Below, in pieces: positions 56,601 through 60,401 of a stretch of DNA of 64,000 bases. The stretch covers positions 490,793 through 554,792 of the forward strand of contig NW_019217897.1 in the NCBI RefSeq assembly GCF_002571385.2, written 5' to 3'. The translations under genes were made by a program, and so were the position numbers. The notes under the pieces were generated by a model. That model ran no database searches. It had not been told where the DNA came from and saw only the letters and a list, made by a program, of their open reading frames with translations. Positions within the stretch are counted from its first letter, which is position 1. Each line of letters starts with the position of its first letter. Source of the stretch: Stylophora pistillata (lineage: Eukaryota).

Positions 56601-59600
56601 TTCGCAATGATAGACACACGCAAAGTTGGCGTCACCTCTGGACTGGTTGGTTGTATATCTGCTATGTCTGTGGATGGCAGAGAAATAAACTTGATAAAGT
56701 CAAACCTTGATTTGCGTAACATCACGCAGTGTACGGAATGTTTGTTACCGTGTGAATTAGAACCTTGTTTAAACAATGCCACATGTCTGCCAATCGGTAA
56801 GATTGGTTATGTTTGCTCGTGTGCGCAGGGGTACACTGGACGACACTGCGAGGTTCCTTTGGTTGGACCACCGAGGAACAATACTTGTGTGAATAACGGT
56901 GTCCTCCTCTCCACCTCGGATAGTATGTGTTCTTGTCCGTTGGGCTTCGGAGGAGATGCATGTGAGAATGGTAAGCCATGGCTTTAGCTTTTTGCACCTC
57001 GTATGCCTTTCATTACAAAATACTCCGAAGCCACCGTCCTAGTTATAAGAACAAATTTGAGCGCGAATGAATTGCTATGCACTGATTGTTTATTCAAAAA
57101 AACGTTTTTCACTCATAGAAAAACCGTTTTGGGTTAAGAAACCTTTTCCAAGTGTTTTCTATGTTTCATTTACCTGTAAATATTATTTAAGTAAGGGTCT
57201 TTTTTTTTGTTTTTGTTTTTGTTTCGTCTTATTCATTCAACTTGAAGTAATTTTTTTTCCACCGTAGTTGTTAAACTTGGCGACAGCGCGGCCTTTAGCG
57301 GAGATGGCTACTTGCAGTTTCCAAGCTCTACGATTCGAGGACCGAGGTAAGACTCGGACTTTTCCTTGCATTTTTTCCAGGAGGTGCCTTAATACGCATT
57401 TCCAAGAAGTGAATACTCTGACTTTCGTGCTGTTTCAAGAGGAAACTATTCGATGTGTTTGTGTTGTTATTTATAGGGTAGTAAAACCAGATTACATGTC
57501 ATTAGAGATAAAAACCGAGGCCGAGAATGGAGTTATTTTATGGCAAGGACAGGTAAGTGTTGATCATCGTTATTCACAAAAAACTGCACATACACATATC
57601 ACAAATGCCAACCAATCTCTCTCAGCTCAAGAAGACACTAAACTGGTTAATTTTCGGCTTTCTTGTAGAGAGGCGACCACTTTGCAATTGGCTTAAGGAA
57701 AGGTCGTTTGGAGTTCAGGTCAGTTAGTTTGTACCTTTGTTTTCACCGTGCGGACATAAAAGTGTGAATGATGGAAAGCAAATTCCGTGATATATAATTG
57801 TGAAATGTTCAGCAGGCAACCGTGGACGATACTCCTACTCTTGTACGTTGGATCAGCGATGATCTGATCGGCCCAAAATAACGAATATGAAATATAAATA
57901 TAGAAGCAAGACCGATAGAACGTAGATAAGTAAATTTTAAGACGGAGCACTATATTTCGGCTGGCCAAACCAGCCTTCTTCAGGTGCAGTGGGAATTTAC
58001 AGAGAATTAGCCATTTTCAAAACGAGCGGCGGTCTGGGTACGATTTGCCACCCTAGAGGCTCTTGGGATCGTTTGGAGGGACAGCAAGAACATGGTGGAC
58101 AAGAGCAATGCAACCGTGCGAGACGCTCTCAAGGTTATTCTGACAGAAGAAGATATACCTGGTGCAAAAATTCCTCGCGAAACTGTAGAACAATGTAGCG
58201 TCGTTCAATTGAAAAGGTGGTTGCTGTGCAGGGGAGCAAAGACTACGGGAAATAAGAAAGCATTGATAACAAGGTAGGTTCACTCGAGGTGTATATTTTC
58301 ATTTAGTGGTGTACATATGAGCTTAAATTATATCGAAGGAGAAATTGTGTCGTTTTATTTTGTTTCATTCCAGTCATATATCATGTTCATATTTTTCAGA
58401 GTTCAAGATTACATTAAGCATGGACTAGACGTTAAATATCTCCGTGATCCAGACGGTGGACTACACCTTCTCCGCAAGAAGGCTCAACTTGGAGTGCTGG
58501 AGGAGGAAGAGCCGCAGCTCAACCAATTCTTTCCAAAAGAAGGATACAAACCTGATTTTAAAGATTTGCCTAAGATAGCTTTTGGAACCGTTTGGCAGTT
58601 TATGATTGAAGGAGTTGAAAGTAAAAAACAACTTTCCACTGCAAAGCCCCTAGTCAAGGGATTTAACTTCTTCAAGTCAGGGCATGTTTTATACATTGGA
58701 CATCTGCACCAAAATGGAAAACATTATGTAAAAAGCCAAGTTCTGCCATCGATGAAAAAAGATAAAGTATACTCTTGTTTTCTGTTAATGTCATCCATAG
58801 GTTGTGTGTTAAAAGCACACTGTAAGTGTCCTGCTGGTATTGATGGCCGTTGTAACCATGTGGCATCTACATTGTTTGCCCTTGAACAAAGCTTTAAGGA
58901 GACGAAAAGGAAAAATTCGGATGCAGCTGAGTCCTGCACATCTAAGCCTTGTAAATGGAATGTGCCAGGGAAACGCAAGGGTCCAGTGACACCTATCTCT
59001 GAGATGAGCTTTGTCAAACATGATTATGCTAAAGAAAAGAAAGCAAAAAGGCCAAAGCTAGCCTCATGTCCAGCACAGAATGGTACCTGTGTATCAGAAA
59101 AAAAAGTCTGGCCAAGTGAAAGATTACAAAACTTCCATAAATCTTTAAAAGAATATCAAATGAAATCTGGGAGAGCTGTTGGATGGACACATATTCTTCC
59201 TCAAAAGGTAAATAATCTGGAAGAGCCACTCATCTCACCCATCAAATGTCATCCAATATCAGCTGATGAACTAAGAGTGAGATTTGAGAAAGTGAAGAGG
59301 AACATTAATTTTGATGAAGAAAAAATAAAGAAAGTAGAAGAGCAAACACGAGGGCAGTCAAACTCAAATTTGTGGCATCATCACAGGCAGCCCAGGATTA
59401 CNNNNNNNNNNNNNNNNNNNNNATATATATTTCTATTTTTGTTGTTATCTCATTGTCAATCAAATTAGTTTTACATATTTCCGCTGTTACATCATACAGC
59501 TATCTATGAAGCATCACCCTAATTCTCTGTAAATTCCCACTGCACCTGAAGAAGGCTGGTTTGGCCAGCCGAAATATAGTGCTCCGTCTTAAAATTTACT

Positions 59601-60401
59601 TATCTACGTTCTATCGGTCTTGCCTCTATATTTATACGTGATATATAGTATTTGAGTGGCGCGGTAGATATCGCCTTTATTGCATACATTAATCATTTTA
59701 TGCCTTCCTCAAGATAAGGCTGTTTCGTTACGACTTTGATACTCGCTTTATAGCATTCTTTTGTGCCTTGAAAGATGGCTACCATTGCTTTATTGTTATA
59801 CGCAGATTCGAGCTTGGCTCTGGCCCTGCTATTCTCAGATCCTCGTTACCAGTCAACGACGGAGAGTGGCACTTAATCGAGGTTTTCAGGTAAGGAAGCC
59901 TGCGCACCGAAGCAAGTCTGTACTTTTCCCGTAGTCATGACGTTGGTCGAGGGTTAGCACCAAGATCCCTCGCATCCTAGACTGACGTATGACCATATGG
60001 CCACTTTGAACCCTCGTGTGTGGAGAAATTGGGGATAATTTATCGTCTCTCTTGCATGTTTTTTAGGAGGTACATGGACGGCTCCTTAAAAGTTGATAAT
60101 CAAGAACCAGTCAATGGAACCTCTGTCTTAGGAAGTAGGGGGCTGAATATCAAGGGATCTATATTTGTGGGTAAGTAGCTTTGTAAAGAAGAAAGGCTGA
60201 TAGTTTCTAAAGAAACTGTTTGGGGCTGCGTCGGTGGGGGTAACGAAATGTAGTAAAGTAAGACTTAATTTATTGAGGATAGCACGTGATAGTGCACAAA
60301 CACAACGTTGAAACGGTAAATTGGCCGCCGTTACAATTATAAAAGCTGACGTTTCGAGCGTTAGCCCTTCGTCGGAGCGTTAGCCCTTCGTCTTTTGCTC
60401 C

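Follow-up and report, generated by a model that had tools for sequence, protein, structure and literature searches.

An ISL2EU DNA transposon most likely nested within a Penelope copy in a predicted intron of Stylophora pistillata

At positions 57786 to 59647 of a 64-kb stretch of Stylophora pistillata DNA (64,000 nucleotides, called the window here), a nuclease gene is enclosed by two inverted, hammerhead-bearing Penelope repeats within a single target site duplication (TSD). Is this gene cargo that the repeats carry as one mobile unit, or does it belong to a second transposon that landed in a retroelement? Both answers had been offered by an original prediction for this locus. We consider it very probable that the interior comes from an ISL2EU DNA transposon, whose left end it forms, and that the arms are a Penelope copy, with Penelope most likely arriving first and ISL2EU then entering an AATT of the long arm by cut-and-paste.

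The outer unit and its surroundings consist of the following features.

57786 to 57796, plus strand: left 11-bp TSD of the Penelope insertion, CGTGATATATA
57797 to 58008, minus strand: Penelope long arm, comprising the 3' end with pLTR and 3' extension, cut at the AATT of 58005-58008
59428 to 59636, plus strand: Penelope inverted short arm, in which the AATT position 59521-59524 is crossed unbroken
59637 to 59647, plus strand: right 11-bp TSD of the Penelope insertion, CGTGATATATA
57719 to 59805, plus strand: predicted host intron holding the whole unit, about 236 bp long without the insertion

Both copies of the 11-bp TSD that had been said to bound the unit were located, and CGTGATATATA has exactly two occurrences within the window. 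The arms had also been described as repeats identical at 117 of 118 positions, and we reproduced this count for 57893-58010 versus 59519-59636, but two of the bases counted (58009-58010) are the terminus of the interior transposon and match by coincidence, leaving a pure Penelope overlap of 115/116. The boundaries of the host intron were picked by eye from GT and AG, and the exon translations on either side of it join in frame. The exon upstream of the unit has LamG and EGF Pfam matches, and the unit lies in a predicted intron of a laminin-G/EGF gene, which we take to be agrin/EYS-like; the region with laminin-G and EGF domains covers window positions 56166-59889. At position 59752, the contig base differed from the assembly in four of four runs, being C in two and T in two; the four include two runs of one sample, and the difference is either a heterozygous site or an assembly error.

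Each arm contains a predicted ribozyme motif.

57947 to 57987, minus strand: predicted minimal type-I hammerhead of the left arm, with a descriptor match at 57983, mirroring the right-arm motif
59542 to 59582, plus strand: predicted minimal type-I hammerhead of the right arm, with a descriptor match at 59546 and a predicted fold

The descriptor consisted of a CUGAAGA core, a 7-bp stem II, GAAA, an AUA triplet, and a 4-bp stem I. It matched three times in the 64-kb window and zero times in each of 30 two-base block shuffles, and it was satisfied by 27 of 30 loci of the Penelope family as well as by both arms in the window. Stems I and II were formed in the predicted fold of the motif (z -2.04). 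An Rfam hammerhead match was absent from the window at E<=1, which is expected because the motifs have almost no helix III. The predicted core was thus seen at 59546 (+) and 57983 (-), in line with the proposal that each arm carries a minimal hammerhead. The third descriptor match, at 2627 on the minus strand (window positions ~2590-2630), lies in sequence that is like an element at 60302-60475 and unlike the Penelope family of 57786 to 59647. The element at 60302-60475 is a second long palindrome with arms at 60338-60378 and 60397-60437 that are 95% complementary; each arm, read by eye, has a minimal hammerhead that is degenerate and belongs to another family, and the palindrome is probably another inverted Penelope remnant. 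An Rfam mir-H11 match at 60349-60426 was below gathering and was rejected as an artefact of the long hairpin.

A genome search with the long arm gave 328 candidates, and when the best 40 were scored, the 39 others were 96-99% identical to it. At 29 other loci, the family extends upstream, with staggered 5' ends, into an open frame. A GIY-YIG domain was found in L034, the 3' part of which belongs to the same family (Pfam E 1.2e-7), and the family has the cysteines between GIY and YIG that are a trait of EN+ Penelope-like elements (PLEs). By eye, the C-terminal fragment shows DD and thumb-region motifs that we assume to be typical of PLE reverse transcriptases (RTs); Pfam RT had no match on this fragment, the only RT part examined. 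The outer arms come from a Penelope family that is abundant and young and that has both an RT-type region and GIY-YIG.

The inverted arrangement of the arms recurs elsewhere in this family. Within the 1.5 kb examined, an inverted arm was present at 8 of the 29 other loci, two of which (L032 and L047) have an outer flank in common and may represent a single insertion, and a ninth locus had a 25-bp remnant. Four of the 29 (L045, L049, L054, and L055) have both an inverted arm and an 11- to 12-bp TSD with no cargo, and their short arms end at family position 114-125, versus 116 at the window locus. An RT/GIY-YIG Penelope would thus have been retrotransposed into the short intron, 5' truncated and with an inverted 5' arm, and this insertion would have made the 11-bp TSD and the two outward-reading hammerheads. 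Retrotransposition of this kind is an established mechanism, and the family itself was identified here. Published accounts of such elements describe arms that are inverted and truncated at the 5' end, a tail on one of the arms, TSDs, and the resulting difficulties for assembly (PMC8557442, PMC3846280), as well as minimal hammerheads and their occurrence in opposite-strand pairs 100 to 700 bp apart (PMC4209133).

The interior starts with the end of a DNA transposon.

58005 to 58085, plus strand: AATT target and left terminal inverted repeat (TIR) of the ISL2EU element, 81 bp counted from AATT

An abrupt start of the interior at 58011 had been proposed; the actual start is at 58005-58009, formed by the AATT plus the TIR. 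When the coral's own genome was searched with 58005-58400, 41 matches were obtained from the best 40 of 45 candidates. Six loci, including the window locus, were 100% identical over all 396 bp of this left end, and among the five others, four had readable flanks that were unrelated to Penelope and one had a flank of N. Twenty longer stretches around these matches were then compared, and window positions 58005-59401 proved identical over 1,397 bp to five other copies. Two sister copies, L061 (G000 C1411:25138-29194) and L062 (C1068:50978-55034), are complete at 4,057 bp including both AATT, with no differences between them and both ORFs open. Their ends are 81-bp TIRs with 2 mismatches, and the left TIR in the window matches the opposite end of these complete copies at 79 of 81 positions. 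The YqaJ gene and a 502-aa transposase lie on opposite strands and are convergent in L061 and L062. Pfam identified DDE_Tnp_4 (E 1.9e-41), HTH_Tnp_4, and THAP domains in the transposase of sister copies, and the DDE spacing in this protein agrees with the PHIS motif of Han 2014 (PMC4122938); at the window locus, the transposase region probably lies within the assembly gap. The 81-bp TIRs and the THAP-HTH-DDE transposase of the sister copies, together with the GIY-YIG of L034, are the kinds of terminal repeats and ORFs that the original prediction had proposed looking for.

The ISL2EU family is likely very young. Two complete and identical copies with both frames open indicate that it has likely been active recently or is active now. 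Contig depth over the transposon body was 24 to 30 times that of unique flank in four runs, a ratio that is not a copy number and gives a hint of tens of copies. Older non-autonomous ISL2EU derivatives were also observed (L020, L023, L025, L026, and L074), which are 1.08 to 1.8 kb long with a TIR identity of 89-95%; one example is at G000 C50:323671-324754, and several of them appear to have transposase-side subterminal sequence at both ends.

How the two elements came to be joined can be read in part from the junction between them. A full-length match to this junction was found only at the window locus (C114) among the best 40 of 289 candidates, so the recurrence check suggested for it gave a unique junction within that set; the genome searches scored the best 40 candidates, and a second junction elsewhere is conceivable. 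Likewise, Penelope was present in just one record among 80 overlapping ISL2EU-end locus records, and of 30 Penelope loci one contained ISL2EU; in both cases the one was the window. These counts bear on a composite retroposition, in which a Penelope transcript holding ISL2EU or its YqaJ half would have been inserted as a hammerhead-flanked unit, intron and all. Such an event would mean that a DNA transposon had hitchhiked on a retroelement, and several features are compatible with it: a single TSD bounds the whole unit, the right end is hidden by the gap, the gene is antisense to the long arm, which would let the intron be kept, and in Adineta vaga pLTRs have been reported to carry an intron-containing gene in trans (PMC3846280). 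It is nevertheless extremely improbable here, since the junction occurs at this locus only among the candidates scored, the supposed cargo exists elsewhere as a complete, self-mobile element with its own TIRs, target, and transposase, and the inverted arm crosses the same AATT unbroken and has two rare variants in common with the long arm. A unique junction and a separate TIR and target are also the outcomes that the original prediction had named as pointing to simple nesting. We therefore set aside the idea of a composite unit with the nuclease as cargo and retained its counterpart, a nested insertion of an ISL2EU-type element into Penelope, which agrees with the 81-bp TIRs, AATT target, and transposase of the interior and with the unique junction.

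The same variants bear on the order of the two insertions. The variants at 59531/57998 and 59611/57918 are common to both arms, and neither was found in the 29 other sampled copies; the 59531/57998 variant was also present in at least 2 further loci of the junction search and thus marks a subfamily. The two shared variants suggest that both arms were copied from one template. The right arm passes the equivalent AATT at 59521-59524 unbroken, and this AATT is present in 28 of 29 family copies. Taken together, the shared variants and the intact AATT in the right arm suggest that ISL2EU most likely inserted into the long arm of a Penelope copy that already occupied the site, an order that assumes a single template for both arms. 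In this second step, the THAP-HTH-DDE transposase of the young ISL2EU family would have inserted a copy at A/AT/T (58005-58008).

The target of the transposon was examined at the ends of other copies. AATT was present at 14 of 14 distinct young ends and at 32 of 39 distinct ends overall. L063 lies in another repeat, and a single AATT was found in 7 of 7 paralogous empty sites (taken from 16 other matches) compared to two in the filled site. The paralogs of L064 have AGTT or AACT, not AATT, which fits a single 4-bp site but a diverged one. Three older ends differ solely at the outer base, which leans toward an AT duplication; an AT (2-bp) and an AATT (4-bp) duplication are indistinguishable from these end data. 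The element ends are AATTAGCC, with the termini TAGCC if the TSD is AT or AGCC if it is AATT. GG followed AAT at 0 of 35 distinct ends. This counts against ISL2EU membership without excluding it, since PMC4482050 states that these elements "usually" start with GG. If the family in fact combines a 4-bp AATT duplication with AG ends, this TSD variant would be new to the ISL2EU group.

Beyond the TIR, the window contains the accessory gene of the transposon as far as the gap.

58092 to 58273, plus strand: exon 1, SAP domain (Pfam SAP), with a GT donor at 58274
58274 to 58399, plus strand: predicted 126-nt GT-AG intron of the accessory gene, with the reading frame kept
58400 to 59401, plus strand: exon 2, with a SWIM-like CxC-x7-CxH motif and the beginning of the YqaJ domain, interrupted by the gap
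59402 to 59422, no strand: assembly gap of 21 N

This gene had been presented as an uninterrupted, intron-containing SAP-SWIM-YqaJ gene. The predicted intron does keep the frame, but the gene is open only as far as the gap. Exon 2 is 100% identical to that of L061 to L065, and the L061 accessory gene, when spliced as predicted, encodes 606 aa with no internal stop. The domain label also held in part. The Pfam SAP match in exon 1 (E 3.1e-5) is exactly at the cutoff, and SWIM refers to the CxC-x7-CxH motif only, with no Pfam SWIM match in three scans. In the complete copy L061, Pfam matches to YqaJ (E 4e-12) and Viral_alk_exo were obtained. The YqaJ match spans residues 325-481 of L061:935-2569 and begins ~10 codons before the gap, so nearly the whole nuclease domain is outside the window. 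ISL2EU elements encode the SAP-SWIM-YqaJ protein as their standard second ORF. The role of this ORF was stated to be unknown by Han et al. 2015 (PMC4482050); in our interpretation, the protein likely binds DNA and assists at the transposition ends as a 5'-3' exonuclease, and an ISL2EU family with two complete open-frame copies would be a convenient substrate for testing what it does.

From the difference between 4,057 and 1,397 bp, the gap probably hides ~2,660 bp of the ISL2EU element, comprising the rest of YqaJ, the transposase, and the right TIR. By eye, bases 59423-59436 resemble the tip of the Penelope fold-back, and ~90 bp of the Penelope long arm would also be within the gap. N interrupt the element in seven of nine other near-identical copies examined, and in L063 and L064 a single N replaces ~700 and ~870 bases, respectively, which makes the 21 N uninformative on gap size. 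The assembler probably failed across a 4-kb multicopy, near-identical repeat next to an inverted repeat and left the 21 N. Family contigs ran on past 59401 as in L061 (four runs). The right TIR/Penelope junction was absent from 8 assembled young right ends. Logan contigs of runs X1, X4, X15, X17, and X5 contained neither junction, not even the assembled left one, in a comparison to which short junction contigs are invisible. The empty-site joint of 57796 to 59648 was found among none of the contigs of four runs, where absence from contigs is uninformative.

Two further explanations concern the gap and the assembly. If nesting had been followed by a local deletion, the ISL2EU copy would be truly truncated and the gap would hide little, as the 21 N of the assembly might suggest and as would agree with a right junction seen in no contig comparison, the same comparison that also missed the assembled left junction. 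We regard this as very unlikely, given that, to the very last base ahead of the gap, the frame is open and the sequence matches complete copies at 100% identity, and that gap sizes are uninformative in the sister copies L063 and L064. A misassembly, by which a Penelope arm was wrongly joined to an ISL2EU contig, is conceivable for two high-copy repeats, and none of the listed contigs bridges the left junction. Yet only 6 bases are common to the two parts where they meet, and these lie exactly at the AATT and the transposon terminus, as expected of a genuine insertion; in 4 of 4 runs, moreover, unique-depth contigs link both Penelope arms to the adjoining host sequence, which makes an error of this kind exceedingly improbable. 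The preferred reading therefore remains an ISL2EU element inserted in a Penelope copy. One transposon within another in an intron is common; what the locus illustrates is how a 21-N gap that hides most of a transposon can make nesting resemble gene capture. No case of ISL2EU and Penelope nesting was found among the papers listed by a literature search, as judged by titles and abstract openings.

The ISL2EU and Penelope elements at this locus are both of known kinds and, compared by description, may be either described families or new members of them. In the definition of PMC4482050, ISL2EU elements target A/AT/T and have two ORFs, one for a DDE/HTH/THAP transposase and one for YqaJ, and the same two-ORF definition is given in PMC9179366; TIRs of 6 to 259 bp are reported, with a GG start as a tendency (PMC4482050). 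Like members of this PHIS group, the Stylophora element has transposase and YqaJ ORFs, 81-bp TIRs, an A/AT/T target, and an animal host, and unlike the usual ISL2EU, its termini are not GG. By description, the closest anatomy among the rows of Table S2 of PMC4482050 is that of ISL2EU-1_ADi (4,088 bp, AT TSD, a THAP/HTH/DDE protein of 525 aa, and a YqaJ protein of 646 aa) and ISL2EU-5_HM (3,885 bp, 81-bp TIR). The SAP and SWIM-like motifs of the Stylophora element are not named in the ISL2EU descriptions consulted, and a literature search for the combination of YqaJ, transposon, and SWIM found nothing. Of the related groups, Spy was rejected on the basis of its one ORF, its lack of THAP, and its AAATTT target as described by Han 2014 (PMC4122938), and Pangu and Nuwa were rejected on the basis of their different TSDs and second ORFs.

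The outer arms, for their part, share GIY-YIG, minimal hammerheads, inverted pLTRs, 5' truncation, and a variable TSD with described EN+ PLEs, and they appear Neptune-like by a linker zinc-finger motif read by eye; the 3' extension of the long arm is ~95 bp, compared to the 30- to 40-bp tail described for EN+ PLEs. A published counterpart to the whole arrangement comes from Adineta vaga, where an NRPS gene was captured through Penelope (PMC3846280) and, as in the window, an intron-containing gene lies between pLTRs inside one TSD. In the Adineta vaga case, a host gene without mobility of its own is flanked by two direct pLTRs, whereas the interior in the window belongs to an autonomous DNA transposon.
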